Source: Felis catus (taxonomy: Eukaryota). Taken from it: DNA of 64,000 nucleotides. The notes beneath the pieces were generated by a model. It was not told the DNA's origin, ran no database searches, and saw nothing but the letters and a program-made list of their open reading frames with translations. Positions 759-41,000 of the stretch are shown here, piece after piece (the first letter of the stretch is position 1; each line of letters opens with the position of its first letter). Location: the NCBI RefSeq assembly GCF_018350175.1, contig NC_058368.1:59956001-60020000 (forward strand). Direction: 5' to 3'. The translations under genes and the position numbers were made by a program.

Positions 759-797
<39 letters not shown>
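759..797. repeat. (CA)n microsatellite
   Basis: Seen directly. Confidence 0.97.
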
Positions 798-798
<1 letters not shown>

Positions 799-1019
799 AC
801 ACACTGACACACACAGAAAAAAGGTTCTAGTTTGGGGTAATATTCCTATATTTATACATTTATTTAATTTATTAATTTACCCAATCCTATTTATTGAGTA
901 TTTTTATATGCAAAGTACCTCATATGGCAAGCAAAATAAGTGAATAAATCTGTTCAAGTAGATAAATAAGTAAAATATAAGGTGGTGTATTGTTAAGGTT
1001 TAAATATATAGATACTTTT

Positions 1020-1229: not shown

Positions 1230-1597
1230 TAAATATATAGATACTTTTAAAATAAAATATAAATATAATAATAATAATAATATAAATATAAATTTAAAAA
1301 CTTTGCCATTTCATCCCAAATGCAAATTGTGTAATGTATTATTTCTTTAAGTACAAGTAACATATCAAGCTTATGGAAAAATACAAACATGAGAAATTCT
1401 TTGACTCCAAATACTAAATCAAAGAATTAAAAATTTTCCATTAAAATATTTATTAATTTATTTTCCTCCACTGTTTACTACAGATAAGCCCTGTAATAAT
1501 TCTTTGTTAGTTGAAACTTTGTTTTTCATAAAAGGTATCTCAATTATTTGTTGTATTACCTACCTAAGCCTCTACCCAACACACTTACACATTTGTA

Positions 1598-1988
1598 TTT
1601 TTTTTTAATATGAAATTTCTTGTCAAATTGGTTTCCATACAACATCCAGTGCTCCTCCCAACAGGTGCCCTCCTCAATGCCCATCACCCACCCTCCCCTG
1701 CCTCCCACTCTCCATCAACCCTCAGTTTATTCTCAGTTTTTAAGAGTCTCTTATGGTTTGGCTCCCTCCCTCTCTAACTCTTTTTTTTCCTTCCCCTCCC
1801 CCATGGTCTTCTGTTAAGTTTCTCAGGATCCACATAAGAGTGAAAACATACAGTATCTGTCTTTCTCTGCTTGACTTATTTTACTTAGCATAACACTCTC
1901 CAGTTCCATCCACGTTGCTACAAAAGGCCATATTTCATTCTTTCTCATTGCCAAGTAGTATTCCATTGTGTATATAAACCATTTCTTA
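1598..1988 (-). mobile_element. 5'-truncated felid L1 (3' UTR and ORF2 C-terminus)
   Basis: T tail at ~1598-1606; 3' UTR closely matches 40780-41000; encodes ...[16 protein letters not shown]...FSLLCGS. Confidence 0.93.
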
Positions 1989-2577
1989 ATGCACGTATGT
2001 ATACATTCTCCTATCATCCCTTTAATGCTTAGTTAGTGAGAATCTTCTAGATGAAGGACGATGTACTAGGATCATGAATGGGCATTAAAATCAATGATGT
2101 CTGGAAGACGTTTATTTGGCATTTAGAATTTAACTTCACTGAATCTCAGAATTATAGTGCATGATAAAGTACTAATGGCCTCTAAGCTGTCATGAAAATA
2201 TTCTTCAGAAAAATCTGACACATCACTATGTTGTGGTTTCCTCTGCAACATCACCACGATACCTTTTAAGACTCATTAAAGAGAGGGATTCCAAAATATA
2301 AATGGAGTTCAGACGTTCTGCAATTAAGAAAACAATAATGTCTATGAGACCATTTTAGGAAACTTCATAATATTCCAGCCCTCACTTCTCTCTCTCTACT
2401 GTCCTAAATGCACTATACAAGCAAACTCCATTACTTGCTTACTAATGAACACATGCCCACCCTTCCTAGTCTCCATTTCAACCGTTTTCTCTAATTATGA
2501 AATTCGAAAAGTCATTTCCATTACTTATTGGTGATTTGGATAACTCCTCCCTCTTTGGCATTCTCCAACACGCGCCA

Positions 2578-2621
2578 ACACGTGCGCGCGTGCGCACACA
2601 CACACACACACACACACACGC
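2578..2621. repeat. (CG)/(CA)n alternating purine-pyrimidine tract
   Basis: acacgtgcgcgcgtgcgc followed by (AC)n. Confidence 0.95.
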
Positions 2622-3134
2622 CTTTCAGACTTTCAAATGGTACAAATTATTGATAAAACCAGTGTCTCCTTTCTATGGAAATGCGGGTTCCAATCAATTC
2701 CTCTGATCACCCTTAAATACTAGCAGCCATCACATCTACCTTCAGTCTACCAGACATTAAAGACTGACTCCACAGAAAAATGCGTTCTCACAATTACTTT
2801 CTATTGTAACTTTTATTGTACTTTTTATAGTAATACCTGAGCACCTAATACTTTTTATTGGTTTTAATAATAGTAACAACAATGTCAAAAACAACAGTAA
2901 ATGACAATATAGTAACTCTGATAATTTCTTAGCATATATATTAATCAATGCAGTGAAACTAAAGTTTGCTATTATATTCACCTTTTACAAATGAGCTAAG
3001 TGATTAAGAGAAAATTTAAATAATTTGCCAAAGGTAACATTGTCAGTCTATGCCTAGAAGTAGTAATTCTAAAGCCTGATTTGTATGCTTTTTCCATACT
3101 GCCTGGTATGTTAAAGCTTTTACCAAATTTGTTG

Positions 3135-3137
<3 letters not shown>

Positions 3138-3176
<39 letters not shown>
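3138..3176. repeat. (TTA)n microsatellite
   Basis: Seen directly. Confidence 0.95.
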
Positions 3177-3179
<3 letters not shown>

Positions 3180-3904
3180 TTTATTGCAGCTGGGTACATT
3201 TATGTCTCTGTTATTTAGACTGTTACATTTTAGAGAGAGAAGTTTATATGATTTTAATCTTTCATCTATCGTCATGCTTGTTATAGTGGCCTAGTAAAAA
3301 TAATATTCATCATGTATTTACTGAATTTAGTAGTTAATAGAAAATAAGTCATAAGTATCACAAGAATACCTCATTACACTGTTTTAAAAAATTAGTTTTA
3401 TTTCCCATAATCTCATTTCATTTAATGCTAAAATTAAATATACTTAATTTTTCCACTTGGAGAGAATTGGATAAAAGTGGAAAAGAGTTCTGATCTTGTC
3501 ATAAAGCCCACTAATAGCTCCTGTATAAATTCTGTTAAATTTCAAATCAGATTTTTTTTTAAGTACAAGTGTGTGGGCTGTGATCTTGACAAGCTTCTGA
3601 AAAACTCTTATCAGACTCTGGTTGCTCTGGTGATCAACCATCTGTTTATACAATTGCAATTTTATTTCCTTCAGAAAATTAGAATAAAAAAGGAATTGAG
3701 AGCTACTATGCTTGTGTTTTTCATCCTACTATGTTGTTATAGGTTGTTAGTATTGGAAACTAGCAACTATGATCATCCAAATAGTTTTAAGAAGAAAGAT
3801 TTTGATTTTATCTGAAAGTTAAAAGTTATGATTTTTAATAGCTTATGATAATTTGCTGATAAAATCATTTAGCTTAATATGTAAGAATTAATGTAAATAC
3901 AAAT

Positions 3905-5190
3905 TATTATTTTTAATTAAAGTATAGCTGACACATAATGTTACATTAGGTTCAGGTGTGCAACATAGTGATTCAACAACTCTATATGCTATGCTCACCC
4001 CAGTGTAGCTACCATCTGCCACCATAAAATGGTAGTACATTACCATTGACTATATTTCGTATGCTGCATGTAGCTTTCATCCCTGTGACTTGTTCATTCC
4101 ATAAGCTGGTACCTCCCACTCCCCTTCACCTATTTTGCCCACCCCTCTACCCTCCTTCTGTCTGGCAACCACCAATCTTCATACCACATCTCGGTTACCA
4201 CATCTTTATCCATTCATCTATCTATGGACATTTAGGTTGCCTCTGTATCTTGGGTATTGTAAGTAATGCTGCAATAAACATAGGAGGGCAGATACCTTTT
4301 CTAATTAATGTTTTTGTTTTCTTCAGATGAACACCCAGTTGTGGAATTATTGGATTATACGGTATTTCTATTTCTAATTCTTTGAGGAACCTCCATACTG
4401 TTTTCCACAGTGGTTTCATCAATATGCATTCCCATCAATAGTGAATGAGGGTTCCCTTTTCTCCACATCTCACTAACACTTATTTCTTACCTTTGTTATA
4501 TTAGCCATTCTGACCGATGTAAAATTATATCTCAGTGTAGTTTTGATTTACATTTCCCTGATGATTAGTGATGTTGAGCATATTATCATGTGTCTGTTGG
4601 CCATTTCCTGTCTACTTTCGAAAAATGTTTATTCAGGCTCTCTGCTCATTTTTAAATCAATTTATTTGGACTTTTTTTTTGTGTGTGTTGGGCTGTATAG
4701 GTTCTCTATGTTTTCTTACTATTGGAATATAATTGGCATGCAATGCTTTATTAGGTCCAGTTGTACAACATATTTAACAAATGTATGTATATATATTTGT
4801 TTTGTTCAAGATTTTCTTCACTGTGCAAAAGCTTTTGGTGTAGTCTCAATAGTTTATATTTGCTTTTGTTTCCCTTGCCTGAGGAGACATATCTAGAAAA
4901 ATGTTTCTAAGTCTGATGTCAAGGAGATTACTGCCTATGTGTTATTTAGAGAGTTTTATTGTTTCAGGTCTCATACTTAGGTACTTAATCCATTTTTAAT
5001 TTATTTTTGTGTGTGGTGTAGTAAAGTGGTATAGTTTTATTCTTTTGTAAGCAGTTGTCCAATTTTACCAGCACCATTCTTAGAGAGACCGTCTTTTCCC
5101 CACTGTATATTCTTGCTTCGTTTGTCATAGATTAATTGACCATATAAGCCTGGGTTCATTTCTGTGCTCTCTATACTGCTCCACTGAAAT
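3905..5190 (-). mobile_element. Older carnivore L1 3' fragment with internal deletions
   Basis: L1 3'-end motif (tatagctgacacataatgttacattagg...) and decayed ORF2 C-terminus (PLWKTVWRFLKELEIEIPY...). Confidence 0.85.
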
Positions 5191-5967
5191 TAATATAGAC
5201 TTATAAGTAAAAGAAATGGAATGTTTTTATTTTTAATTTTAAAAGAATCATTCAAAATGGTTGTGACAGGGAAGTATGCCAAGGTCAGATTAATATAAAT
5301 ACGACAATAATTATAATTAAACCACTTATTTATTGTATAGTGCATTTAGGAAAAAAATTTGGGGAAAGAGGGGAAGAAGATAAAAAAAAATCCCTGTCAA
5401 AGTGACAAAAGTCTGAAATTCATTTTCCAAATTCTAAAGAAAATTTATCCAATATTTTATTTCCTCAACTCTTTTCATTGGATGGCAAAAAAGAAATGTT
5501 TTTGAAAATTTCTGTTGAAATTTCATACAGATTTGACAACTAAGCAAAGTTGGGAGTGACATGAAAGGGAGAAATTGGAGCAGAAAAAAAGGAAGCAAAC
5601 TTACTAAGGTGAATTTTTTTCAATTTTGTAAATTTTATAAAAGTATTGTGACTTTAAACATTATTAAGACCCTCTCTGTGCCTGGGAAGAGGCAGGCCCA
5701 TACAAGTGAAATCCACAGATTCTGAGCTTTATGACCCTCTTAGTAATTCAGACTCTGCTCATTATATATTTTCCTTAGCTTTACTGAGGTATAATTGATA
5801 AACAAAAAATTGCACACATTTAGTAGACACAATTTAGAAATTTTCTTGGTCTCTTATTAATATGTAAAACCAGGAGACTTGTTGAAATTTCATGTTTGAC
5901 AACTAAGCAATGCAGGTTGATCAAGATTCTCTTTATTTAGATTACTACATGTCATTACCCACTTGTT

Positions 5968-6119
5968 ATATTAGTGTTCTATTGCTCCCAGAACAAATTA
6001 CCATGAATGTAGTGACTTAAAACAAAGGAAATTTATTATATTTCAGTTCTCTAAGTCCGAGTTAGATACAGGTCTCCCTAGGCCAACATCAAGGTGTGGG
6101 CAAGGTTTCATCCACTTCT
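5968..6119 (-). mobile_element. MaLR (MLT1-type) LTR fragment, cut by the L1
   Basis: Resembles the reverse complement of an MLT1 3' end (acaaattacca...gtgacttaaaacaa...atttatt...cagttct...atcaaggtgt). Confidence 0.65.
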
Positions 6120-6588
6120 TTTTATTTTATCTTACTTCATTTCATTTCATTTCATATTTCATTTCATTTCATTTCATTTTTTTATTTTTATAATTTACTG
6201 TCAAGTTAGCTAACATGCAGTGTATACAGTGTGCTCTTGGCTTCAGAGTAGGTTCCCATGATTCATCACTTAAAACACCCAGTGTTCATCCCAACTAGTG
6301 CACTCCTCAATTCGCCATCACCCATTTTCCCCGCCCCCTCAGCCCCTCACTCCCTTCCAGCCTCAGTTTGTTCTCTGTATTTAAAAGTCTTATATGGTTT
6401 GCCTCCCTCTCTGTAACTATGTATTTTTTTCTTTCCCTTCCCCCATTGGTCTTCCGTTAAGTTTCTCAACTTCCACGTATGAGTGAAAATATATCATATC
6501 TGTCTTTCTCTGACTTATTTTCTGAGCATAATACCCTCCAATTCCATCTGTATTGTTGCAAATGGTAAGATTTCATTGTTTTCCATCA

Positions 6589-6592
<4 letters not shown>

Positions 6593-6633
<41 letters not shown>
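6593..6633. repeat. (TA)n microsatellite
   Basis: Seen directly. Confidence 0.97.
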
Positions 6634-6638
<5 letters not shown>

Positions 6639-6641
6639 CAC

Positions 6642-6855
6642 TTTTTTTAAATTTTTTTAACGTTTATTTTTGAGACAGAGAGAGACAGAGCATGAATGGA
6701 GGAGGGTCAGAGAGAGGGAGACACAGAATCCGAAACAGGCTCCAGGCTCTGAGCTGTCAGCACAGAGCCCGACTCGGGGCTCGAACTCACGGACCGCGAG
6801 TTCGTGACCTGAGCCGAAGTCGGCCGCTCAACCTACTGAGCCACCCAGGCGCCCC
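6642..6855 (-). mobile_element. CanSINE inside L1
   Basis: Ends ...gagccacccaggcgcccc; T tail; CpGs retained. Confidence 0.95.
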
Positions 6856-7972
6856 TATAACACATCTTCTTTATCCCAGTTGATGGACATGGACATTTGG
6901 GCTCTTTCCATAAGTTGGCTATTGTTGATAGCACTGCTATAAACATTGGGGTACACATGCTCCTGTGAATCATCACCCCTGTATCCTTTAGATAAATTCC
7001 AAGTAGTGCTATTGCTGGGTCGTAGGGTAATTCAATCTTTAATTTTTTGAGGAACTTCCACACTGTTTTCTAGAGTGGTTGCACCAGTTTGCAAAAGTGT
7101 AGCTACTACCCAAAGCAATCTACAGATTCAATGCAATCCCAATAAAAACAGCACCAGCATTCTTCTCAGAGTTAGAACAAACAATCCTAAAATTTGTATG
7201 GAACCACAAAAGACCCAGAATAGCCAAAGTAATGTTGAAAAAGAAAACCAAAGCTGGAGGCATCACAATGCTGGACTTTCACCTCTACAACAAAGCTGTA
7301 ATCATCAAGACAGTATGGTGTTGGCACAAAAACAGACACTTAGCCAATGTAAAATTATGTGAAGCAAGAAGTATTTTGCAAATATGGAAATGAAATATTT
7401 GTACTGTTTTTTAGGCATAACAGAAAAGCAAAGAAAACGAACACCAAAAAAGAAATAAATTTTTAATTGCCATGGTTGTACTCAGAGAAGAAGAATTTTT
7501 TAAGATACTAGTATTATTTCAGAGAGTTTTTATAATGCACAAAAACAATCACCTCCAATAGGCCAGATTTTACATATTCTTTACAAGTAAGACACTGTAA
7601 TGGGGGAAACAATCATAACTCAGAGACAGTTTTAGCAAGTTGTTTCTGCAAAGTGATCTATAATACAATAAAATACAGAAACACACACTCAGAGTTTCTC
7701 AGGATGATTGCAACATAAGCAGATAAAAATCTAGCAATAATTAGAACAAAATTAACATATTCACTCTACTAGTTTAACTTGTGCTTGATCAACCTAAAAG
7801 AGAGAGAAAATCAAATACTTGCTGTACAAGAATCAAAATGGCCTTTGAATCATAGGCTCACTTCTGTTAAATTAGGTTACTGCAGAAAAAGTAAACGCTT
7901 ACATAAAAACTTACATATTTTATACCATTTGTAGACTAACCTTATACAGGAAATATATATTTTTCATATATC

Positions 7973-8147
7973 CTTTTTTAAATGTCTATTTATTTTTGAG
8001 AGAGAGGGACAGAGAAAGAGGGAGACTAGGGTCTGAGCAGGTCTGTGCTGACAGCAGAGTCCTGTGCGGGGCTCCGACCCACAAACGGTGACATTGTGAC
8101 CTGAGTCGAAATCGGACACTTAACCAACTGAGCCACTCTGGTGCCCC
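7973..8147 (-). mobile_element. CanSINE
   Basis: Decayed head ...gagccactctggtgcccc, (GA)n, T tail. Confidence 0.9.
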
Positions 8148-8775
8148 AATAATATTCTTGACCTAACACATAGGTCATCCTTGGTGCCTGTTTATCAAAT
8201 ATCACTTCTCATCCTTGCTCTTTGGGAGCGAATAATATGCTATGCGTAATGTTAGTGATATCATCATAAAAAAGTGAATCCCAGGGACTTTAAACTCTTA
8301 AATGAAGACAAAGTTTCAATCAAGATAATTGTTTTGATTCAATTCGCAAAATAAGAATGGGCCTGAACTGTACTTAAGGTGATTAAGAAAAATAACATAT
8401 AATGAACATTTTTCTTAACGTTCTAAAATTCTTAAAAAAGGAAAAAACAAGTGGGCTACAATTAATAAATAGACAAATTTTATATTATATGTTGACGAAT
8501 CCAAAGAGTTGCAGAATTATTTGGTCATTAAACATTTCATGCCAATTCGTAATTTTCCCCCTTCCAACAAATTGTGCTAACTTAAAAATTTCATCTGGTT
8601 TTTAAACGCAAGTTAAAAGATAAGACTATTTGGTGTATATGCCCATGTGCTGTATCTACATGCAATTTCAAAGGACACACTAATAATTATTTAAGGAAAA
8701 GAAAAGATTTAAGAATACTGATTGTTCTCTTCAATACTGGAAGTCTGCTCCTCTGAATTAAGAGTTGACTCTTCT

Positions 8776-8985
8776 GGGGGCACCTGGGCAGCTCAGTCGG
8801 TTAAGCATCTGACTTCAGCTCAGGTCACGATCTCACAGTTTGTGAGTTTGAGCCCTGCGTGGGACTTTGTGCTGACAGCTCAGAACCTAGAGTTTGCTTC
8901 AGATTCTTTGTGTCCCTCTCTCTGCCCCTCCCCCGGTCGCACTCTGTCTCTCTCCCTCTTAAAAATAATAAATAAACATTAAAAA
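8776..8985 (+). mobile_element. CanSINE
   Basis: ggggcacctggg head; imperfect TSD aagagttgactctt / aagagtttgctctt. Confidence 0.93.
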
Positions 8986-9893
8986 AGAGTTTGCTCTTAT
9001 GTTACAAGCATGTGACAGTTCAAATGTCCCTCTCAATTAAGCTACACATACTCCTATCAGGTAAATTAATGTCCATTAGGTAGAATTACATTTTTTTTTC
9101 AATTTCATATTAGCAGAATTATGCTGGCTGCACTTAATGATAAGAGCTGTTCCAGTTGTCAGATGGGACCTACCACATTTCCTGTAACCAGAGTAAAAAC
9201 CAATTGACACAGTCCATTCATTGTAATGTAACAAAAACAAAAACAAAAAACAAAAAAAGCAAAAAACAACAACAAAAAAGGAAACATGGTTGTACCACTT
9301 TGTTTTATTAATAGATTCTTGCTTTACTGTGTCAGCATGATGTTGGTCTAGAGAGTGCAACCATTGTTTCATAAACAAACTTGCTAGGAACATTATAACA
9401 TTACATTCTCAAGATGTAGTCATCCATCCAACTATGCCAAGGACTAGGAATTGTCTTGTTACTTTTAAGATGGTATACAACAGTATTTCCCTGAAACATT
9501 AAATGATATATAATGTTAGTTTTACAGGATCATCCTAGTTCATATTAATTTAACATCAGACAGTAAGAGAAATAGAGAATACCAGGTGTTTATCATTGAC
9601 AATATAAAAATTTCATAAACTCTGTTAATGTCACTGGGAATGTCAAGAAAATATAGCTGAATGGTTTTGTTTAAAAACTAACTTAAGATATTGGGAATTT
9701 GTGTCCTCTGTGATGCAGATATCTACACTACAATGTATATGTGTAAGGGAAAAGAAAGGTGTCCCTTTTTCTCCTATTTTGTTAGATGAAGATTAAAATG
9801 ACAACCTTCCCTACACACACACTGAACAGTTTAGAAATCTCTACACTACAATATCTGTTATTCATGTTATATCAACATTAAACAGTTAACACA

Positions 9894-10090
9894 GGGACAC
9901 CTGTGTGGCTCAATTAGCTAAGCATCAGACTTCAGTTTAGGTCACGATCTCATGGTTTATGAGTTCAAGCCCTGCATCAGGCTCTGTCCTGACAGTGCAG
10001 AGCTGGCTTGGGATTCTCTCTCTCTCCCTCTCCCTTTGTCCCTCCCCCACTTGTGCTTTCTCATAAATAAATCAATAAACTAACAAAAAA
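9894..10090 (+). mobile_element. CanSINE
   Basis: gggacacctgtgtggctc head, (CT)n, A tail. Confidence 0.9.
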
Positions 10091-10752
10091 TTAACATTAT
10101 ATTAATGTCATAATTATATACTCAGGGATTTTTAAAAAGCAATCCTAGACTATACAGAGAATAATTCAACATCTAAAAGCACAATGAATTTGCCATGTTA
10201 AAAACTGAAATCATTTTCCTTCTCCTCAACATATCCTCTATTCTTCATTATGGTTAGGGATCCCTTATAATTATTTTACATATCTTAGACAAAGTTCTAT
10301 AAATCAATTCCTATAGATAATTTCATATCTATAACTAAGCTTATTGGAGAATAATTATGATGATTTCAGAGATCCTCAGCTTCTAAATAATGTCTTATAT
10401 TTTATCTAATTGAATCTATAAAAAATTAGAAGGAATATTGTCAATATAATCAGTACTGAGTAAGTTACTCTTCTTCAAACTTTCAGGGCTTCTACTTTGT
10501 TGAATTTCAAATACAGATAGCACTAGATATTACCAAAATGTATATTAACTTGCAGTAATGATAGTGATGGGTGTTTTACTTTTCTAATATAATACCACAT
10601 TTGTAATTTCCTTATTAGGACATCACTTTTAAAAACATGTGAGTGACATTGAGATAACACAGGTAATCAGACTGACAAATTAAACTCACAAGAGTTGGAG
10701 GTATTAAACTTTACTAATAATTCAAATGATAGTGATAAAAAAACACAGGCTA

Positions 10753-10958
10753 GGGGCGCCTGGGTGGCGCAGTCGGTTAAGCGTCCGACTTCAACCAGGT
10801 CACGATCTCGCGGTCCGTGAGTTCGAGCCCCGCGTCAGGCTCTGGGCTGATGGCTCAGAGCCTGGAGCCTGTTTCCGATGCTGTGTCTCCCTCCCGGGTT
10901 CATGCTCTGTCTCTCTCTGTCCCAAAAAGAAATAAACGTTGAAAAATAAAATAAAATA
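10753..10958 (+). mobile_element. CanSINE, young subfamily, short internal deletion
   Basis: TSD aaaaaacacaggcta on both sides; lacks the tctctgcccctcccc block. Confidence 0.95.
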
Positions 10959-11871
10959 AAAAAACACAGGCTAAACATGGAGTATGAGACAGCCAACACA
11001 ACTCTTAGTTTCTACCTAGCTCTATTGGTGGGCACTCTGACTGAGATTGAGCATATGAGGTATCTGAAGTGGTATACAAGGGACATCACCTTCAGAAAGA
11101 GAGCTATTTCAGTTAAAAATACCTTCACATTTTTTTTTTGTCCAGGAATTGTGTATCTATCATTGTTATTTTTAAAAAGTCACATACTTTACATAGATCA
11201 TACATTTCAATTTTGGGATTATAAGCAACCTTTGGGTAGTTTGGGTACATCCTGTTGAAGATATCATAAGAAGGTTCTGTGGGTATATTTACAGAATACT
11301 TTTACTGAGCTTTTTTTTTTTTTTGATGTTTTCCCAAGGCTACAGACTAGCTGCTAACTCTTTACTTACCAAGCATGAAATTCAGGAAAGTGTCATGGAG
11401 ATTAATATGTTATAATGTTAGACATATATTCCTAATGAAATATATAGCCCTGAATTACCTTGTCTGTTTATTTTTAAAAAATCTGAAACAGTATCGCATC
11501 ACTCTCCTAAATCACATGGTAATTTTTAAACTTAAGCAGATTTTTTTCGCACTGAAAAGTTAAAAGGTTTATTATGCTGTTTTTGCAAGATTTTGATAAT
11601 TTATTTTATTCTGATATCCGACCAAAAGGAATGTATAAAATCAGATAAAATATAATGGGGGAGGAGTTACAATCAAGTAAAATATCAGCGTGAATCACAA
11701 AACAGTAGAAAAATAAAGCAATCTGAAGTGAATGATACAATTTAATCTTTTTTTAAAAATCTGTTCTATACCTTATTTTAAAGAAATAAGTAAGAAAAAC
11801 ATTGTTTGCCAACTACCCAGCTAATAATGGAGGATAATTTATCAAGGTCAGAAATGAATAAGATGGGGGTG

Positions 11872-12078
11872 GGGCGTCTGGGTGACTTAGTCAATTAAGC
11901 CTCTGACTTTGGCTCAGGTCAGGCATGATCTCAGGATTCTCGAATTCCAGCCCTGCAGGGTTCTCTGCTGTCAGTGCAGAGCCCACTTCCAATCTTCTGT
12001 CTCATTCTCTCTCTCTCTGCCCCTCTCCGCGGGCATGCCCTCTCTCTCTCTGAAAAATAAATAAACATTTTAAAAAAA
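11872..12078 (+). mobile_element. CanSINE
   Basis: ggggcgtctgggtgact head, (CT)n, A tail. Confidence 0.9.
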
Positions 12079-29175: not shown

Positions 29176-31667
29176 CTCTGAATATATACAAAATTTACAC
29201 ATGCGCTCACATGCATGTGTGCATGCACACACACACAGTAATTACTTTGTAAAATGAGAAATGTGTATGAAAGTAAATGTTTATGCCATCTTCACATGAC
29301 GGACTAGTAATATTTTTCAGTAAACCAATTTATATGGACACAAGAAGTAATATGTCAATTTATGGATAGCTTCACTCTTTAACAATGCCTCATTGAATCA
29401 ATTAGTAAAATGTATTATTTTCCCTTGTGTGTCAGGATATTTGTTACAAACTAGATGAGTGCTTTTGCCAATTTACTCAAAATGTTGGATATTGTTTCAC
29501 ATATTTGGAAAAGACTTCATTTTTGAGGAACTAATAACAAAATGAGTACTTAACTAACAAAAATACCCCCCTAATTTAGCCTCAAATGTTGGGGCTGAAA
29601 TTGAAAAGTGCAATACTTACTCTTTCACATGTGCTTTGTTTGCTATGACTGCTTTCATCAAGTTTAAGGTGAGCCAAGATCTGAATTTGAAATTATGGAG
29701 TCTCCAAACAGAAGATGAAAGAAAACAGAAGGAAAGAGCAGACAGAGAGAAGTCCAGAGTGCAAAGCAGGCATTATTCCGATTTCCCTTTTCTTTTCAGG
29801 TTTGTGATTGGTGTCTTCACAGAGGGTTTTCAGTCACATACTGAGAACTCTAATTAAGAGACTCATCTTCATTTGTGCTGGCTTGAGGGGGCACTTCAAT
29901 CAAGTGAAACCTGTTGAAGTGCGAATAGGAAGAGCAGGGGAAGTCTGACTGTCATCAGAAGTAGGTTGGCTGTCGGCCAGGAGGCAACACAGGACAGGCA
30001 GCTTCACTGGCAAAACGTCCTCAACCTGGTATGGAAACTTGAGGCAGAAATCAGCTTTTGCCAGCACACTGGGACTGGATCTGTTTATTAGAGGTAAGCG
30101 GACTTAACCAGAGCTCTCAGAGGCTGATATAAAAGTTCAAAGGTCAATTTATTATTTTGCAGTGAGGAGTACTACTTACTTCTGGTCTGATTAATATACT
30201 TTCTCGTGATGGACGTGCATTAGAAGTTGACATATTTTTCAAGAACTGCTTGGTAGTCGTGAAATCTGAATAAGGGGGGAGTTTTGATAATAATAGCTTC
30301 TGATAGTCTGACACATGTATCTCCTCAGTAGAATATATCTGTCTCTAGGACCAAAGAGATCATACATCTCATTATACTACATGAATAACGCTGGCATTAT
30401 TTTCTTCTCTGACTCTTTTTTTTTCTGTTTTTATCATTGATCACTCCTTTCAACTGACAGGTATCAGAGAATATCTGCTGGTGATAGTGATATTAAGATT
30501 GCACCAGCTTCCCAAGAACTTGGAGACACACAGGGCAATCCTGTAAAAAAATTTTTTTTTAAAAAAACATTAAAAATTAGGCAAATCTGACACCATGGAA
30601 ATTATTAACAATCTGCAACAAAACCATGAGTTTATGTATTATTGTATGCTAAGTAATTCAGGAAGGCTTAAATTCCAGTTATGATGTTCTGGCAGTAGTC
30701 TCATGGAAAGCCATTCTACTAAAATTTAATTAATTAATTTTTCCTTTTTTTCCTTTTACTTTGGTGGATTTTAAGTTCACAGAATTGGATTAATTCTACT
30801 TACATTCATCCTTATTTCATGCAAGCTCGTATCTATCTATCTATCTATCTATCATCTATTATCTATCTATCTCTATTGTCTATAGTAAAAAAAAGGTCAC
30901 ATATATCTGAATATTGGAACAATGACAATAACAGGACTTAACCACTTTTGTGTTTTTTCCCCAACTCCTCCTTTTTTATTCCTCAAACATTGTTCTCTTT
31001 CTTCTGAATCCTGTGCCCATTATACCCTTGCTTTTATTTTTACATAATTTTATATAAGTTGATGATGCTTATATGTATGATGAGAAGACATGAGAGATAA
31101 TTCAAACACAGCAGTAAGGAAGCACCTGAAGACTGACCAGTCCTCTAATAGTGAGAGAGAAAGTGAACGAGCAAACAACAGGGTGTTTTACCCACTTTAG
31201 CTTAGAAATGCTTCATGAATATCTTTGCTCTGATTTCAAGCTCATATCACAGTCTAATAAATTCTTAGTAGATTCCAAGTAAATTACTTAGAAATAAAAA
31301 CGTTCTAAGAAATTTACAGAATGTTTTGTCTAACTGAGATAGCATGTCTCGTTATAAATCTGGCAGACACTGTGGTTATAATCGAGCATCCTTAGAAGGA
31401 CAAGATACACAGATAGTTTCATTCTTCGAACATTCATGCTGGAGATGTGATTGTTGTGTTGAAAGCTTGATATGAAATTAAAATATCGTTCAGAATATTA
31501 TGAGATAACAATTAATAATCAAAAATCATTTTCCAGACTTGAAAAAAAATAAGAATTAACATTCAAAATCTTTAAAAACATGGGCTTTGGGCTTGTACTC
31601 AAATCCAAACTATGCTACTTCAAAGTTAGGTATGCTTTCTGATTCACATATCAAAATCTTAAATATT

Positions 31668-31885
31668 TTTAAAAAAATTTTAAGTGTATTTGTTTATTTT
31701 TGAGAGAGAGACAGAGACAGCAAGTGGGGGACAGGCAGAGAGAGAGGGAGAGAGAGAATCCCAGGCAAGCTCCGCACTGTCCCCATGGAGCCCAATGTGG
31801 GGCTTGAACTCACAAACAATGAGATCATGACCTGAGCCAAAACCAAGACTCAGACACTTAATCCCCTGAACCACCCTGGCACCCC
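31668..31885 (-). mobile_element. CanSINE inside a MIR-like sequence
   Basis: TSD tcaaaatcttaa at 31651-31662 and 31886-31897. Confidence 0.92.
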
Positions 31886-32888
31886 TCAAAATCTTAATTG
31901 TAATAGCCTCCCAAGTTCTCTTGAAATTAATGACTATGCCAGAAGTACCTACCACGGTTCCTGACACGTAACAGGTGCTCAATATATGATGAGTTTTCTC
32001 TTTCTTCTTCATTGCAAGGTAAGATCTTTCTATGATTGCTCAACATACCAGCTCACATGTTATTTCTTTAAATCAAGTTCAATTGCATGCCAATAGAAAA
32101 TAATTATGGTCAAACACTCATATAATACATTCTTGAATATGGGGTGTATTGTGTTCAAGACAATGTAAAGGCCATCTTTTCTAAGTACACTTGTGGTCTT
32201 TAAGACCACGTCACTGAACCGATCACTTCTGACAGACTCCAGTTACTCAGACAACTTGCTTCGGTGGAGTTCCAGCTCTGCACACAGACTACACCATGCA
32301 ATCTGCAAGGCCAAATGTGTAACTCCTTAATAATATTACCCTGAAATTTCTCATCATCAGAACTAACCAGAAAGGCCATACACCACAGTCTGGAATCTGC
32401 TGTGACAAAATGAGTTAAAATCCCAGCATGTCATATTGATCTCCTAGGCTAAGCACCTAATCATTAGTATTAATCAGACTTGAAGAAATAATTAAGAATG
32501 TAGATTGATTCTTAGAAGGCAATTATTAAAAAGAAAAAAAAAGGATAAATCTGCTATGAATACAAAGTATAAAATATCAACAATAAAGGTAGTTGTGGAA
32601 TGACTTGACCCTTACGACTTCAACACAAGTTATGCCTATTTAATCTTTATTTAGAGACAAGTTTTCTGAGAACAATGCAATTTGTGTCACACTGTTATAG
32701 GGAATTTTGTGTCCAGGGAAACAGCCCCAAAACCTTTAGTTTAAGAACCATTAAAAATAAATGCTGTTCTGCAATATTAAAGAATGAACAGCTAATGTAA
32801 TGATTGATCCAAATGTAACATTTCTAAAGATAAGACAGAAAAACTACGAATGAATCACCTGTACGGCTTATAGAAAATTAAGATTTCA

Positions 32889-33007
32889 GGATGCCTGAGT
32901 GGTTTGGTTGGTTAAGCATTGGACTGCCGATTTCAGCCTAAGTTATGATCTCCTGGTTGTGAGATTGAGCCCCACTTTGGGCTCCGCGCTGGATGTAGAG
33001 CCTGCTC

Positions 33008-33056
<49 letters not shown>

Positions 33057-33089
33057 CCCTTCCCCCTCCCCTGCTCACTCTCTCTCTTA

Positions 33090-33136
<47 letters not shown>

Positions 33137-33139
33137 AAG

Positions 33140-33222
<83 letters not shown>

Positions 33223-33223
33223 A
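32889..33223 (+). mobile_element. CanSINE with expanded (CT)n and (GA)n/(GAAA)n tail
   Basis: ggatgcctgagtgg head; aagatttc flanks both ends. Confidence 0.9.
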
Positions 33224-33224
33224 A
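33089..33224. repeat. Compound (GAAA)n/(GA)n polypurine microsatellite
   Basis: About 135 bp of pure purine tract derived from a SINE tail. Confidence 0.97.
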
Positions 33225-33527
33225 AGATTTCTACTTTCTCACTAGATTCATTGATCTGTAAACCTTAGGAATCTACACATGTCAAGATACACAAATGATT
33301 GCTATGCCAAGATACACAAATGATTGCTATGCATACTTAAATTTCAGATCAGTGTCCTAGGGAATTTTTCTTGAGTAGGTGATCAAAGCAAGGAGAGAGC
33401 TTTTATGGTAGAGGCCGTAAGAAAAGAGCCCTTAGAGACGAGCACCTAGCACAGACAGTCAAATGAAGCAAAGGTGGATACGCCTGAAACTTATTCCTGG
33501 CAACTATCATTAAAAATATAACTTCTC

Positions 33528-33755
33528 GGGGCGCCTGGGTGGCGCAGTCGGTTAAGCGTCCGACTTCAGCCAGGTCACGATCTCACCGTCTGTGAGTTCG
33601 AGCCCCGTGTCAGGCTCTGGGCTGATGGCTCGGAGCCTGGAGCCTGTTTCCGATTCTGCGTCTCCCTCTCTCTCTGCCCCTCCCCCGTTCATGCTCTGTC
33701 TCTCTCTGTCCCAAAAATAAATAAAAACGTTGAAAAAAATTTTTTGAAAAAAAAA
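33528..33755 (+). mobile_element. CanSINE, young subfamily
   Basis: Nearly identical to 19044-19266. Confidence 0.96.
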
Positions 33756-34995
33756 CATAAATTCTCACAAAGATAGATTAGGTTATTTTCTAAATTACTT
33801 TAAATTCATTTTTAGAACAAGAATGTTGAGAGAACAGTACCTGTCTATATAAGGTTGGGGCAAAACCTCTGAACATATATATTTTATGTCATTTTGCTTT
33901 TTGACTTATGTTAATATATTTTATATTAAACAAAGTAAAATATAATTTATCTCCAAGTAAATAAAAATCCTTATGATACACAACTAGACATATTCCATTA
34001 TATTGTCTTTTTCTTTACTAGCATTTTACGTACAGTAAAGATTCTGTCAGTAACTAAAACAACATTTGGGCAAGCAATAAATTGATCCACATGAGTATTG
34101 ATGGAATTATCACTCAATTTTCATATTGTTCTTACTTTCTTCTTCTTATTTTTTTTGGGGGGGGGGGAATGGGTTTCTTGCTACTTTGAAGAAACCTTTA
34201 GACGGTGACCCTTTGTTTCTGTCCACTCTTGTGAGTTTATATTTTATATCTCAGTTTCCTTAGAGACATGAAAGTATTCAGACTACAGAGATTTTTTTTT
34301 ATCTGGACCAATGTTGTGAATACCAGGTTTAGCTTGAACCTGATATTTGCAGGAACAGGAATATCTGTAACAGTGTCAGTTCCCACTGGAATGAACTAGA
34401 TGGAGCCGTAATTTTCCGTTTAGATTCATTCCTTGAATTTAATATAGTCAGTCAGAATCCAAATCTAAATCTATCCCAATCAGGTTTATAGACAGCAGTC
34501 TGGCAACTGAAGAATTACAATTCAAAACCCCAGTTGGCCATGCCTGTAACATCTATTCTAAATAGAATGAAGACAGGGAACTTTAGAGTAAACGTGTTCA
34601 AAATATTTTCTTTGTAGACATGAATGCCCAAAGTATTTTCTACATTAGGAATTTGCAAGCAATTTCAAAGGAAATATTTGTCAAATTTACTGAGGTTACA
34701 TATCTTCTTCTTGAAAAGTAAAAACAAAAAAAAAGAAACATTTTTCATTAATTTTCTATTTTGAAAAATCCCAATTTTTCCTGGAGAACTTAGATTTTTA
34801 AAATATTATGTATCAATTGAAGTGAATATTTTATTTGTATGGTACTATTTGGATTAATTTACTTTTCTGAAATTAATCAATGAGTCATGCTAGTGTACAG
34901 AATGGTTTTTAGAAGGAATTGGCTTTTGAGGAGGTTTATTTATCCCATCTGTAGCACTTACTACTATTGTGACTTTGAAAAAAAAGTAAATGAAG

Positions 34996-35625
34996 GAAAA
35001 AAAAAGTTAGAGAGGGAGGGAGCCAAAACATAAGAGACTCTTAAAAACTGAGAATAAACTGAGGGTTGATGGAGAGTGGGAGGCAGGGGAGGGTGGGTGA
35101 TGGGCATTGAGGAAGGCACCTGTTGGGAGGAGCACTGGGTGTTGTATGGAAACCAATTTGATAATAAATTTTATATTAAAAAAATATAAATGTGTTGGGT
35201 AGAGGCTTAGGTAGGTAATACAACAAATAACTGAGATACCTTTTATAAGAAACAAAGTTTCAATAACAAAGAATTAGTACAGGGCTCATCTGTAGTAAAC
35301 AGTAGAGGAAAATAAATTAATAAAAATATTTAATGGAAAATTTTTAAATCTTTGATTTAATATTTGGAGTCAAAGAATTTCTCATGTTTGTATTTTTCCA
35401 TAAGCTTGATATGTTACTTGTACTTAAAGAAATAATACATTATACAATTTGCATTTGGGATGAAATGGCAAAGTTTTTAAATTTATATTTATATTATTAT
35501 TATATTTATATTTTATTTTAAAAGTATCTATATATTTAAACCTTAACAATACACCACCTTATATTATGAGCACTGGGTGTTGTATGGAAACTAATTTGAC
35601 AATAAATTTCATATTTAAAAAAAAG
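34996..35625 (+). mobile_element. Chimeric L1-mediated insertion: inverted copy of 974-1790 (without the SINE) plus a ~60-nt L1 3' end
   Basis: 16-bp TSD aaaaaagtaaatgaag at 34980-34995 and 35626-35641. 34996-35565 is the reverse complement of ~1790 to 974. 35566-35625 is a second L1 3' terminus with AATAAA and an A tail. Confidence 0.92.
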
Positions 35626-37532
35626 AAAAAAGTAAATGAAGCTACCAGTGCTTCTGTTTCCCCATTTGTAAATTGCAAAATTTAATTCAAACATTTTTTT
35701 CATCTATTTTTAAGTTTTATGATGCTCTGCATTTCTTAAGTCCTTTATGATACCTTAAATCATGTCATCTTCATGCTATCCCTATAAGATAGGGAGAAAT
35801 TATTACTATTTTCACTTACAAGTGATACAACTGAAGCATAGAGGCATTAAATAAATTTTCCTCACCCTATCAATGACATAATTTTTACTTTAGAGGCTTG
35901 TCATTTTGAATATAAAATATTTCCTTGAGCAGATAATTCCAAGCTATTATTTACAAATGTAAATATATATGTACATATATATATTCATATTGAACTTATG
36001 AATATTTTCTGCCTCTAGAAATAATATCTGTGTGCCTGGATATTAGTTAAATGGATCTTACAGCTTTAAGCCTATGGCTTTAAATCGTGGCTTCTTGTAC
36101 ATTTGCAACTTATTTATTTCTTTTTATTTACTTTTGTATGCATGATGACTTCTGAATAAACATATCTATAAATTATTCATTGGATATCACATTCAAAATT
36201 TGTGGTTCAGGTCAGATTCCAAGATGTTGATGCTTAAAATTCAGACATTCCCGGTGGTAAAGGGGAGTTTAAAGGAGGAATTAACATTCAGATTACAAAT
36301 GCATATCAAATTCTTTTTTTGAAATCGTCATCCTTTGTAAATTTCAATCACACTATTGTACAAGATTTGTCAAATTAAAAGGATATTTTGCTCCCTCAGA
36401 GCTTACATAAGTGATATATCTGCTAAACATTCTTTGATAAAATCACAAACCAAGTTTATAAATAAGTTTTTTAAAAACCATTTTGATAAGCAAGACTTTC
36501 TGGATTAATTAATCGGGTGCACCTGGAAATGTGGACTATGGACAGGAATTCAAGAACTTCTGTTCTGAAAAGGACTGGAGAAATGATAAACTAATCACAT
36601 CATTCCAAATCTGACAAATTGTTCCTGGAGCTGATTTAAAAGACTGGAAGAACAGATTTTATCTCCTGCAGATTTTCTCTTTGGGACAAGAATATTCCGA
36701 AGATGCTCCCATATTGGAAGCTCTTTGCAGCTTCAGATTGCCTTCCACTGTGTTTCCTTCTCTCTCTGTGGTCATATTGTGAGAGATGGTTAAAATTCCT
36801 GTTGAACGCTTCTAGGGAGACAAATGAGCTGCTGTTTTCAGACAACCCTTTGGGAAAGTATGTGATTAAACTTTATCAGTAGAGGAAAATTCTGTAACTT
36901 CAGGGATTTCTCTTCATTATTCTTCTACCCCTAGGCCTTATTGGGAAGGTGGGGTTGGGGGTTACCCAGGGTGCTGCTGAAGACTGTAACAGGAATAAAA
37001 CTACTCCCTGATGCAATCTGGAGGAAAACTATTTAAAGCTACATGGAGGAATTTGGCTTCTGCCCAGGAGATAGGTATTTCATAACAAAAAAGAGGTGGA
37101 GTAGGAGGTTATGGTATGGTGTAGTGACAGCAGCATTCTCCCAACCGTAGACAGAAGATGGCATGATGACCAAAATTCCAGGCTGCCAATGACGTGGGTT
37201 CTGAAGTCCTTCAAACACCAGAACCCTTGTTGATAACAAGGAGGATTGCAAACCTTTATGTTGGAGTTGCTGGGTTCACTGGTTGGAGCCAAATTATATC
37301 AAATGAATATAGGAGATTGACATCAGAGATAAAAGTAAGTCACTACTGAGTGAGAAAAATGGTTGAATCATTAGAAACAAGGCTGAGCAATCTTTGTCTT
37401 TTGCTTAAGATGAAAAGTCAGCGTATATACAGTCGTTCTTTATAAGCCCTTTGATAAGGAATTGAATTTGTTCCATGATATCAGAAGTGCTTTTGAAGGA
37501 AAATTAGGAAGAAACAAGAGAGAAAGACTCTC

Positions 37533-37849
37533 TGTCTTAGTCTTTTTTGATGTTATAACAAAAATACCGTATACCAGGTGAGGTATAAACAATAAATTAC
37601 ATTCCCCACAGCTCTCAGGCTGGGAAGTCCAGGTTCAAGACACTAATAGATCTGGCACTAAATCACTTTCTGGCTCATAGAAGGTGTCTTCTTGTGGGGA
37701 TTCCTTTAATAAGGGCATTAATCCCATTCATGAAGGCTCACCCTCTACCAAATCACTTTCCAAAGTTCCCATCTCCAAATACTACCACACTGGGGAAAAA
37801 GTTTCAACATATAAATGAGTGAGGAGAGGTAAACATTTACTCTGTAGCA
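37533..37849 (-). mobile_element. MLT1A-like solo LTR
   Basis: On the minus strand it runs TGCTACAG...GACTAAGACA, with the characteristic atgaatgggattaatgcccttat core. Confidence 0.8.
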
Positions 37850-37887
37850 ATCTATTAAAAAAATAAATCTTGAAGTTGGGTTTCACT

Positions 37888-38077
37888 ATTTTTTAAGTTT
37901 ATTTATTTATTTTGAGAGAAAGAAACAGAGAGGCAGAGAGAGAGAGAATCCCAAGTAGCCTCTATACTGTCAATGTACAGAACCTGATGTGGGGCTCGAG
38001 CTCAGGAACTGTGAGATCATTACCTGAGCTGAAATCAAGAGTGTGACACTTAACCAACTGAGCCACCCAGGTACCCC
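37888..38077 (-). mobile_element. CanSINE
   Basis: ...gagccacccaggtacccc head, T tail. Confidence 0.9.
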
Positions 38078-38213
38078 TGGACTTCATTTCTTGAGGTTAA
38101 ACTTTAAGAACTAACTAAAATTAGAGAGAGTGAGTTCTTTACAGTCTCACCAGAGGGATATTTTTGCCCAAGTATCAGATAGTCTGTCAATAAACAGAAT
38201 AATAGTTAATATA

Positions 38214-38690
38214 GAGTGGTCTCCTCTTACCCAAGACTCCCACTTCCAAGAATTTTAGTAGATGCCTGAAACTGTGAATAGTACTGAACCTTACATATAC
38301 TAGGCTTTTTCTGTACATACCTACATATGATAAAGTTTAATTTATAAATTATGCATAGTAAGAGATGAAAAACAATAACTAATAATAAAATAGAACAATG
38401 ATAACAATATACTGTAATAAAAGTTATCAGAATGTGCTTTCACTCTCTATCAAAAAATCTTATTGTGTTATACTTACCCTTCTTCTTGTCATAATGTTAG
38501 ATGATAAGAGGCCTATGTGATGAGAGGAAGTGAGGTGAATGACACAGACACTGTGACATAGCTTTAAGCTACTACTGACTTTCTGATGATTGGTCCAAGG
38601 AGGATCATCTGCTCCTAGACCACCACTGACCTCAGGTAACAGAAAGTGATACAGCAATAAGGGAGGTGGGGGTGGGGAAGAACTACTATA
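38214..38690. mobile_element. TcMar-Tigger DNA transposon fossil (MER44-like)
   Basis: gatgcctgaaactgtgaatagtactgaacc...atgataaagtttaatttataaatta...tactgtaataaaagttat resembles the recalled consensus. Confidence 0.7.
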
Positions 38691-38691
38691 T

Positions 38692-38915
38692 ATTGAATGT
38701 TTACTGTGTATCAGGCAACTTGATAAGCACTTCACCTAAATGATCTCATTTAATTCTAACAGTAAGCATGTTGCAGGTTTATCAGCTACTATTATTATTC
38801 CCAAATAAGGTGAGGAGCCTGCATTTAGAAAAAAGCTAAAGACTAATACAGCTATATCCTAGCAGAAAGCAGATAGCTATATCCTAGCAGATACCGGCTT
38901 CAAATCCCATTCAAT
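38692..38915 (-). mobile_element. MIR fragment
   Basis: tattgaatgtttactgtgtatcaggca...atctcatttaattct...attattattccc...aggtgagga. Confidence 0.6.
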
Positions 38916-39202
38916 TAATTTTTAATAATAGGATTTGGTGTCCTATCTGCAAGCTGTCTTTTCCATATACAAAAGTATTTCTACTTAAAAAAGTAAATTT
39001 TTAGATACTGTGTGGCTATATCTAAAATAATTGGTACTTTAAATAGCATATTACTTATCTATTGGAAATTATTCTATTCAGCCAAAAAATTATTTTTAAA
39101 GAACTAAAATTATCAGGTTTCAAGTGGAGATATTTTCTAATAAGGCAGTTTATGGGCAAACCATTACAAACTACAAAATTAAATTTAAAAAAATATGGTG
39201 CC

Positions 39203-39385
39203 AGGGTGCCAGGGTGGCTCAGTTGGTTAAACCTTCCATTCTTGATTTGGGCTCAGGTCATGATGTCAGAGTTTATGGGTTCCAGACCCAAATGGAGTCT
39301 GATTGGGATTCTCTCTCTTCTCTCTGCCCCTCCCCTGCTCGTGCTCTGTCTCTAAAAATACATAACAATAAACCTTTAAAAAATT
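39203..39385 (+). mobile_element. CanSINE
   Basis: agggtgccagggtggctcag head; tttaaaaaa..tatggt flanks. Confidence 0.88.
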
Positions 39386-40004
39386 ATGGTTCCAACAAAA
39401 GGGAAGATGCTTTAAGTAATTCATTTTCATATGAAAATTATCAAACAGGTGATTTTGTTAATCTACCTCACTTTGCAAATAAGAAATCTGAGGTAGATGA
39501 GGCTACTTGACTTGTACTGGTTAACTCAGTACTGATTAACTCAAGCTTTTAGGGAGAGTGCATAAAATGTTTTCAAACTGATTCCTGTTGTACATGGATT
39601 AAAGGACTGTTTTCAGTCTTTAGCTAAAACAAATATACAAATCATAACCTGTATCAACATATGCCTAGTCGTATTATTGTAGATATATATCAGGAATATT
39701 TTTCTGGAAGTTGTTTTTCTGGATTTAATTAATTAATTAATTAATTTGCATATTTACTTATTTAATTTTATTTTATTGTTCATGTTTCAAGTTTTGTTTT
39801 GAATACTAGTTAGTTAACATATAGTGTAATATTAGTTTCAGTAGTACAATTGAGTGATTCATCACTTACATGTAACAACCAGGGCTCATCCTAACATGTG
39901 CCTTCCTTAATGCCCGTCACCCATTTAGCCCATCTCCCCCCATGCATCTCCTCTTCAGCAACCCTCAGTTTTTCTCTATAGTTAAGAGTCTGTTTTATGG
40001 TTTG

Positions 40005-40006
<2 letters not shown>

Positions 40007-40048
<42 letters not shown>
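40007..40048. repeat. (TA)n microsatellite
   Basis: Seen directly. Confidence 0.97.
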
Positions 40049-40051
<3 letters not shown>

Positions 40052-41000
40052 CATATTTTCTTTATGCATTCATCAGTCAATGGACATTTTGGCTCCTTCC
40101 ATGTAGATTTTGGATACTAATCCTTTATCAGATACATCATTTGCAAATATCTTCTAAAAGTATCTTTTGGTTTCGTTGATTATTTCCTTTGCTATGCAGA
40201 AACTTTTCATTTTGATGAGGTCCCAATAGTTCATTTTTTCTTTTGTTTTCCTTGCTTCCAGAGATATGTCTAATAAGAAGTTGCTAAGTCTGAGGTCATA
40301 GAGATTGCTCCCGTGTTCTCTAGGATTTTGATGGCTTCCTGACTCACATTTAGGTCTTTCATCCATTTTGGATTTCTTTTTGTGTATCATGTAGGAAAGT
40401 GGTCCAGTTTCATTCTTTTGCATGTTGCTGTCCAATTTTCCCAACACTGTTTGTTGAATAGACTGTATTTTGTCTATTGGATATTAATTCCTGCTTTGTT
40501 GAAGACTAGTTGGCCATATAGTTGTGGTCCATTTCTGGGTTTTCTGTACTGTTCCATTGATCTATGTGTCTGTTTTTGTGCCAGTACCATACTGTCTTGA
40601 TGATTACAGCTTTGTAATATAGCTTGAAGCCCAGGATTGTGATGCCTCCAGCTTTGCTTTTCTTTTTCAAGATTGTTTTGGCTTCTCGGGGTCTTTTGTG
40701 GTTCCATACAAAAGCTCTGTGAAAAGTGCTAGTAGTATTCCAATAGGGATTGCATTAAATGTGTAGATTTCTTTTTATTTTTATATGAAATTTATTGACA
40801 AATTGGTTTCTATACAACACCCAGTGCTCATCCCAAAAGGTGCCCTCCTCAATACCCATCACCCACCCTCTCCTCCCTCCCACCCCCCATCAACCCTCAG
40901 TTTGTTCTCAGTTTTTAACAGTCTCTTATGCTTTGGCTCTCTCACACTCTAACCTCTTTTTTTTTTCCTTCCCCTCCCCCATGGGTTCCTGTTAAGTTTC

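Follow-up and report, generated by a model that had tools for sequence, protein, structure and literature searches.

How could one insertion come to hold the 3' ends of two different L1 elements, separated by DNA that occurs at only one other place in the genome, and why should that place lie some 34 kb away on the same chromosome? The question is raised by a composite insert at positions 34980-35641 of a 64,000-nucleotide stretch of the Felis catus genome (assembly GCF_018350175.1, contig NC_058368.1, positions 59,956,001 to 60,020,000 of the forward strand). This whole stretch is called the window hereafter, and all positions are counted in it unless stated otherwise. An earlier note, made from the letters of the window alone, had described the insert as a chimeric L1 insertion with a captured inverted copy of distant DNA. 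The insert is very probably the outcome of one event of L1 target-primed reverse transcription (TPRT) that used two templates, the second of them local. The parts of the insert, from left to right, are the following.

34980-34995, plus strand: left target-site duplication, AAAAAAGTAAATGAAG, ending in GAAG, the 4 nt with which the homology to the donor begins.
34992-35184, plus strand: captured L1 3' end, 5'-truncated (last ~186 nt) and followed by an A7 tail; a copy of the donor stub at 1793-1598, with donor-private variants and the rare motif AGGAG.
35185-35565, plus strand: captured unique AT-rich flank of 381 nt; a copy of donor 1597-974 in a form without the short interspersed nuclear element (SINE) that the donor now carries.
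35566-35616, plus strand: terminal L1 3' end of 51 nt (ATGAG...AACTAA...CATATTT), bluntly joined to the flank and followed by an A8G tail at 35617-35625.
35626-35641, plus strand: right target-site duplication, AAAAAAGTAAATGAAG.

The anatomy can be read directly. Both 16-bp duplications are identical at 16 of 16 positions and enclose the whole composite. The captured piece (34992-35565) is a 574-nt inverted copy of 1793-974, and the two L1 pieces of the insert are co-oriented on the plus strand. At 35565|35566 the flank passes directly into the terminal L1, with no filler bases and no overlap, and the insert sequence has neither an A tract nor a second duplication between these two parts. At the left end, the GAAG of 34992-34995 is common to the duplication and to donor positions 1793-1790. 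The earlier note had reported the pair of 16-bp duplications, the order of L1 3' untranslated region with A tail, AT-rich DNA and second L1 end, and the 4-nt microhomology at the left junction; reading the insert part by part gives the same picture on all three.

The insert bears the hallmarks of L1 TPRT, namely a 16-bp duplication round the entire insert, within the ~7-20 bp usual for such events, and an end made of L1 3' untranslated region and poly(A). At the presumed endonuclease site the top strand reads CTTTGAAAAAAAAGT. Its A run represents the AAAA half of the L1 endonuclease consensus TT/AAAA (10.1101/2025.02.02.635956), while the bases preceding the cut are AA or TG according to where the cut is placed. 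The duplications, the A tail, the L1 3' end, the cut at an A/T run and the single duplication enclosing everything argue for one TPRT event with two templates.

The captured parts lead to the donor region near the left end of the window, which has three features.

974-1793, minus strand: donor segment, made of the tail of an old L1 stub and its 3' flank, now split by a later SINE.
1598-1993, minus strand: donor L1, a 5'-truncated 3' stub of 396 bp with no promoter of its own, equivalent to positions 6027-6428 of the ~6.4-kb L1 of the window (89%).
1001-1248, plus strand: SINE of 210 bp (1020-1229) with perfect 19-bp duplications (1001-1019 and 1230-1248), missing from the copy.

A BLAST search with 34900-35750 against the window aligns 34992-35538 with 1793-1230 on the minus strand (93.45% over 565 columns) and 35520-35565 with 1019-974 (100%, 46 nt). 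In a single local alignment made after deletion of the donor SINE and one 19-bp duplication, 34992-35565 and 1793-974 share 556 matches, with 17 mismatches and 19 gap columns in 6 indels. Identity is thus 97.0% without gaps and 93.9% with gaps. The mismatches are evenly spread, 6 in ~197 positions of the L1 part and 11 in ~376 of the flank, as expected of one copying event. The figure of roughly 95-97% given by eye in the earlier note, for 34996-35565 as the reverse complement of ~1790-974, agrees with the gap-free value, and its description of the donor L1 as a promoterless stub of ~390 bp is accurate; the SINE had gone unmentioned. Comparison of 30000-40500 with 1-12000 found no further homology beyond SINE and L1 repeats, so that the duplicated block is exactly the insert and not part of a larger segmental duplication.

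The direction of copying follows from the borders of the two segments. The donor is continued by L1 sequence at one border and by unique DNA at the opposite one, while the copy has target-site duplications and an A tail; 1793-974 is therefore the source. The SINE is missing from the copy and so entered the donor after the capture. As judged from these two segments, the order of events is insertion of the L1 stub, then the capture, then arrival of the donor SINE. Copy and donor have diverged by 2.97% (Jukes-Cantor distance 0.030). A felid substitution rate of ~2e-9 per site per year would date the capture to about 5-9 Myr before present. Some of the differences between copy and donor can be described individually. 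The L1 polyadenylation hexamer reads AATAAA in the copy (35161-35168) and in the terminal piece and AAGAAA in the present donor (1611-1618), and the donor probably lost its AATAAA signal after the capture. The largest indels are 8 nt between TGTG repeats (35185-35200 versus 1597-1575) and 6 nt in a TATTAT microsatellite (35492 versus ~1282); both look like ordinary slippage.

Genome-wide searches, made on the 2.43-Gb assembly of 71 contigs, support a single source. Besides itself, the 381-nt flank finds the donor, in two pieces split by the SINE, and otherwise only one AT-rich match of 65 nt at 80% on another contig; the earlier note had predicted exactly two hits. A 40-mer across the junction of flank and terminal L1 occurs at 1 genomic place, with up to 2 mismatches allowed. 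The two copies of the flank and the unique junction mean that the assembly holds no other source locus and no daughter copies of the insert. The same 40-mer gave 0 matches in a metagenome scan. The captured L1 part can be traced by the 35-mer at 35066-35100, which is found exactly at 2 genomic places only, the copy and the donor; 2 more places differ by one mismatch, and 191 places lie within 2 mismatches. Since its exact form is private to these two loci, the captured L1 part came from the donor stub and not from an independent L1. Gene conversion of a pre-existing L1 was rejected on the same 35-mer. By these shared variants, the whole of 34992-35565, L1 part included up to its 5' end, derives from the donor.

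The terminal 51 nt have another origin. A degenerate family 35-mer spanning the diagnostic sites occurs at 13,525 genomic places, where the AGGAG form accounts for 146 (1.1%) and the ATGAG state for ~99%. Among the first 100 places listed, 93 read ATGAG/AACCAA, 5 ATGAG/AACTAA and 2 AGGAG/AACCAA. The terminal piece reads ATGAG/AACTAA and the L1 at ~40830 also has ATGAG, while the captured piece and the donor have AGGAG. The exact terminal 51-mer is present at 11 genomic places, 10 of them elsewhere and at L1 tails; three carriers that were fetched are L1 3' ends with differing truncation points, one only ~110 nt long and one with an inverted L1 upstream. These 10 other loci and the family-majority state ATGAG show that the terminal piece came, by its sequence affinities, from another L1 RNA than that of the donor. 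In a three-way comparison of the shared 51 nt there are 3 differences specific to the terminal piece, 2 to the captured piece and 2 to the donor. Such counts, which a star tree fits, do not by themselves set the terminal piece apart; the states that it shares with family variants do. The earlier note had read the distribution of AGGAG and ATGAG correctly, and its assignment of the last ~60 nt to a different L1 RNA stands on the family majority and on the 10 other loci.

One candidate source of the terminal piece was rejected and another is not supported. A double use of the donor RNA, by internal priming on the A tract of the stub followed by a jump downstream, disagrees with the family-majority state and with the presence of the 51-mer at 10 other loci. 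The near-full-length L1 at 40767-~47000 is only 86.7% identical over 75 columns and has neither AACTAA nor CATATTT. This element, on the minus strand 5 kb from the insertion, has Pfam matches to endonuclease, reverse transcriptase and the ORF1 dsRBD, and its ORF2 is broken into pieces of 650, 146, 136 and 482 aa. As to structures that could pause the reverse transcriptase, predicted G-quadruplexes lie 24-58 nt 5' of the switch point in 3 carriers of the 51-mer and a small hairpin spans that point in only 2 of them, a pattern that is not decisive. The carrier at C2:45641202-45644252 has the end of an L1 ORF2 in reverse complement directly upstream of its sense 3' end, which is the pattern of a twin-priming 5' inversion.

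A sequence of steps can be proposed that would give this structure in one TPRT event. The L1 ORF2 protein (ORF2p) would nick the T run that faces 34978-34985 on the bottom strand and begin reverse transcription at the poly(A) of an L1 RNA whose tail belongs to the 'AACTAA/CATATTT' lineage; only 51 nt of its 3' untranslated region would be copied. The first-strand cDNA would then continue, with no overlap and no filler, onto a second single-stranded template having the minus-strand sense of 974->1793, that is the unique flank, the A tract and the last 186 nt of the old L1 stub. Synthesis would stop once CTTC in the cDNA could pair with GAAG on the 3' overhang at the opposite target end, in the way known from ordinary 5'-truncated insertions, and second-strand synthesis and ligation would leave the 16-bp duplications. 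From the end product we infer the template switch as such and what kind of template came second. That the switch was made by the end of the primary first-strand cDNA has, in our estimate, a chance a little short of even. The individual steps have precedents: microhomology at the 5' junction of truncated L1 insertions was reported experimentally (PMC11702581), ORF2p accepts RNA as well as DNA as template and in vitro yields products of template jumping (PMC10830420), L1 chimeras were explained by template switching or RNA ligation (10.1101/2025.02.02.635956; PMC2104539), and same-orientation insertions of two transcripts were ascribed to one or other of these two processes (PMC11702581, section 7). 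The earlier note had proposed TPRT on an L1 RNA with a switch after ~60 nt. Its single event with two templates inside one pair of duplications holds; its attribution of the switch to the first strand is one of two readings, as priming from the reciprocal end gives the same sequence.

The position of the donor bears on the nature of the second template. It lies in cis, 33.2-34.0 kb from the insertion site, and the chance for a random genomic donor to fall within +/-34 kb is 2.8e-5. Donors were recognisable only inside the 64-kb window; still, even with hundreds of chimeras per genome fewer than ~0.03 such cases would be expected by chance. The cis distance and this low chance argue for a second template that was local rather than a freely diffusing RNA. 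Physical proximity of the two sites at the time of insertion, drawn from these odds, is a reasonable inference. A local origin suits single-stranded DNA in cis, and suits RNA only if it was nascent or chromatin-bound. The template is accordingly divided about evenly between local chromatin-bound RNA and local single-stranded DNA. It is possible, at a probability that we put distinctly under one half, that genomic DNA was the template of the 574 nt, ORF2p itself or a break made by L1 having switched onto single-stranded DNA exposed 34 kb away, for instance at a converging replication fork. The insert may then, at the same tentative level, record an L1-triggered, microhomology-primed replicative template switch in a natural germline. 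Within the window, L1 elements lie in both orientations. An Rfam search of 34900-35720 yielded nothing beyond a match at chance level (best E 0.92). A SINE at 33528-33739, 1.2 kb left of the insertion, has very high strand-biased RNA depth in run X24; this reflects family-wide SINE transcripts and not the locus.

Several points weigh against one TPRT event with a local second template, or against its first-strand form. The first-strand switch and priming from the reciprocal end predict identical sequence. Position 974 has no preceding poly(A) signal and the terminal L1 has no A tract before it, so that the 3' end of the acceptor is left unexplained. Known template-switch chimeras use abundant RNAs that may come from any part of the genome, which makes the local origin an extra assumption. 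The AATAAA in the copy means that the poly(A) signal of the stub was probably working at the time of capture, and an RNA of minus-strand sense would have had to read through it. Signs of local transcription were not seen: the 129 open reading frames (ORFs) of at least 70 aa in the window contain only L1 domains and no host Pfam domain, and in ~2% of the oligo-dT RNA run X24 the depth is 0-0.4 in repeat-free bins of 33851-37000, a weak result with the donor outside the coverage. Finally, 35565|35566 is not crossed by any of the contigs listed from independent data, as copy and donor run together in the assembly graph at that point.

Among the rival explanations, it is possible, if somewhat doubtful, that the TPRT event was the same but that the 574 nt were made from the reciprocal target end (...ATGAAG-3'), by annealing of its GAAG to the CTTC at 1793-1790 on the plus strand of the donor. 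From this end synthesis would have run as far as 974, and the released strand would have been joined, bluntly, to a first-strand cDNA that had halted 51 nt into the L1. Possible templates are single-stranded DNA, such as that of a nearby fork, used by synthesis resembling microhomology-mediated break-induced replication (MMBIR) or fork stalling and template switching (FoSTeS) or by DNA-dependent synthesis of ORF2p, or else a plus-strand RNA in a manner similar to twin priming. The 4-nt microhomology coincides with the expected starting point of such priming, short primers on DNA are extended by ORF2p (PMC10830420), and the discrete 16-bp duplication resembles those of 12-18 bp that have been described for twin-primed insertions, 71% of twin-primed junctions having microhomology of at least 2 bp (PMC11702581). 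A cis donor at 34 kb is moreover predicted by a DNA-templated switch and not by a diffusible RNA, and no transcription was seen, either in the Pfam analysis of the 129 ORFs or in the ~2% of one RNA run over 33851-37000, a region that does not include the donor. The price is two rare events together, a cDNA stall at 51 nt and heterologous invasion by the other end, with 574 nt of synthesis off a 4-nt anchor that on duplex DNA requires exposed single strands. The published inverted duplication of this kind shown in Fig. S9C was templated ~100 bp away by fold-back, not at 34 kb (PMC11702581). Classical twin priming itself was rejected, the two L1 pieces being co-oriented and from different L1 copies.

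The unique junction counts against a chimeric RNA formed beforehand and inserted by ordinary TPRT in trans, whether by RNA ligation of a local transcript to a 51-nt L1 end or by transcription of a lost donor allele with a 60-bp L1 at 974. For U6/L1 chimeras, formation through RNA ligation by RtcB is accepted (PMC6789731), and a ligation would fit a blunt, filler-free junction. Yet the junction 40-mer has no second place in the genome, the donor bears no trace of an L1 or of a duplication at 974, a local transcript would still be needed, and the partner at 34 kb would be left unexplained; we regard this origin as improbable. Splicing at the junction was discarded, as the donor has TT after 974 and the L1 has GG before ATGAG, which gives no GT...AG pair and no splice signals for a pre-formed RNA. 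More improbable still is a history in two steps, in which a resident short L1 was repaired from the donor L1 with over-synthesis into the flank, or a 60-bp L1 inserted itself into the A tail of an earlier retrocopy. In favour of such a history, a normal L1 has the sequences of the two pieces side by side (...TTGGG|ATGAGC...) and L1-L1 homology could guide ectopic repair, but the captured L1 carries donor-private variants up to its 5' truncation point (2 exact places, 2 more at one mismatch), nothing resembling an A tract or second duplication separates flank and terminal L1, and one perfect 16-bp duplication surrounds everything. An assembly artefact or chance resemblance has the least probability of all and is hardly credible. 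It would draw on the unbridged junction and on one contig of run X3 that leaves the locus at 35565, a departure explained by 46 bp of perfect identity with the donor. Against it, all of 14 DNA-type runs from 9 studies, with one species label, hold 0.94-0.96 of 179 sampled words from 34400-36200. Error-free contigs from 3 DNA runs of 3 studies cover 33716-35021 (26 nt of insert with the duplication and left flank before them), 35148-35538 (in three pieces in run X3; from the L1 tail across the A tract into the flank) and 35602-37000 (24 nt of terminal L1 with its tail, duplication and right flank), and thus span both outer junctions and that of L1 tail and flank. A match of 574 nt at 97% together with duplications identical at 16 of 16 positions is not chance. 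No joint skipping 34996-35641, as an empty allele within the species would give, is among the 15 of 151 joints listed, and the insertion looks fixed or common.

One TPRT event with two templates has several relatives among published L1 insertions. In U6/L1-type chimeric retrogenes the 3' part is likewise a 5'-truncated LINE end with A tail, here the last 51 nt of an L1, directly joined to the 5' part and flanked by short direct repeats, here the 16-bp duplication (features ii, iii and v of PMC2104539). Feature iv combines a direct join with a shared transcriptional orientation of the parts; at the locus the join is direct and the stub within the 5' part is co-oriented with the terminal L1, while a shared transcriptional orientation would depend on the strand of a putative donor transcript. 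In the description given there the 5' part reproduces a cellular RNA in full length (feature i of PMC2104539), whereas that of the locus starts at a microhomology within an L1 stub and runs out in unique DNA that seems non-genic. Later catalogues of chimeras admit RNA fragments as the 5' part (10.1101/2025.02.02.635956). The 5' part of the locus differs also by having no Rfam family and by coming from 34 kb away in cis.

Insertions of two transcripts found in human cells over-expressing L1 similarly combine two templates in one TPRT insertion, those with opposite directions of reverse transcription being ascribed to the joining of two extended ends; the second templates in the cases described are RNA transcripts, while the source is local here (PMC11702581, section 7). 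Other insertions carry an inverted duplication or 'templated genomic sequences' near the target (Figs S9C and S10B of PMC11702581); in these, truncated L1 cDNA is accompanied by an inverted copy of nearby DNA attributed to processing or synthesis at the reciprocal end. In S9C the template is ~100 bp from the cut, according to the coordinates of the caption, and was used by fold-back; at the locus the distance is 33-34 kb, the 16-bp duplication is intact and the genome is a natural one. The strangeness that the earlier note saw in the chimera was overstated, since chimeras by template switching or RNA ligation, two-transcript insertions and insertions templated nearby had all been published.

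L1 3' transduction also copies an L1 tail and downstream DNA together to a new site. This origin was rejected, as the earlier note had argued: the flank runs into the ATGAGC... of a second L1 3' end and not into a poly(A) of its own, the donor L1 is a stub of 396 bp, and the two genomic copies do not form a transduction family. Twin priming has in common a possible second priming at the reciprocal end through microhomology and a discrete duplication (PMC11702581). It differs in the orientation and origin of the L1 pieces, co-oriented and from different copies at the locus, and in that the second template is not the inserting L1 RNA. FoSTeS and MMBIR copy a few hundred nucleotides from tens of kb away, often inverted and with microhomology at the junctions. 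To our knowledge these events lack a target-site duplication, an A tail and L1 cDNA. The locus resembles them in its inverted copy from tens of kb and its microhomology and differs by having all three of these features. It works like known L1 chimeras; only the nearby cis origin of the copied piece is unusual.

Elsewhere in the window, 40007-40064 and 6589-6649 share stretches of ~44 nt that match at 98-100% in both orientations. These are most likely a simple palindromic AT microsatellite beside old L1 fragments.

The insert is a clean natural L1 insertion, very probably made from two templates, in which the second template is unambiguous and lies in cis at 34 kb. It indicates that L1 integration intermediates can take up local sequence over tens of kb, beyond abundant nuclear RNAs or DNA adjacent to the cut. 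As a single case whose general mechanism is known, it is of moderate importance, which rests on the cis origin of the second template. Repeat annotation would render such a locus as two unrelated L1 fragments round 'unique' DNA, and the tracing of source elements through 3' transductions could misread it. The locus also suggests the design of a census, in which insertions bounded by target-site duplications and having a unique 5' part are collected and their donors mapped. Such a census could separate RNA from DNA templating and could test a link to three-dimensional or replication proximity. If the 574 nt were indeed copied from DNA, chimeras of this type would be fossil records of loci that were physically close, with strands exposed, at the time of insertion, and L1 would also be a source of small dispersed inverted duplications.

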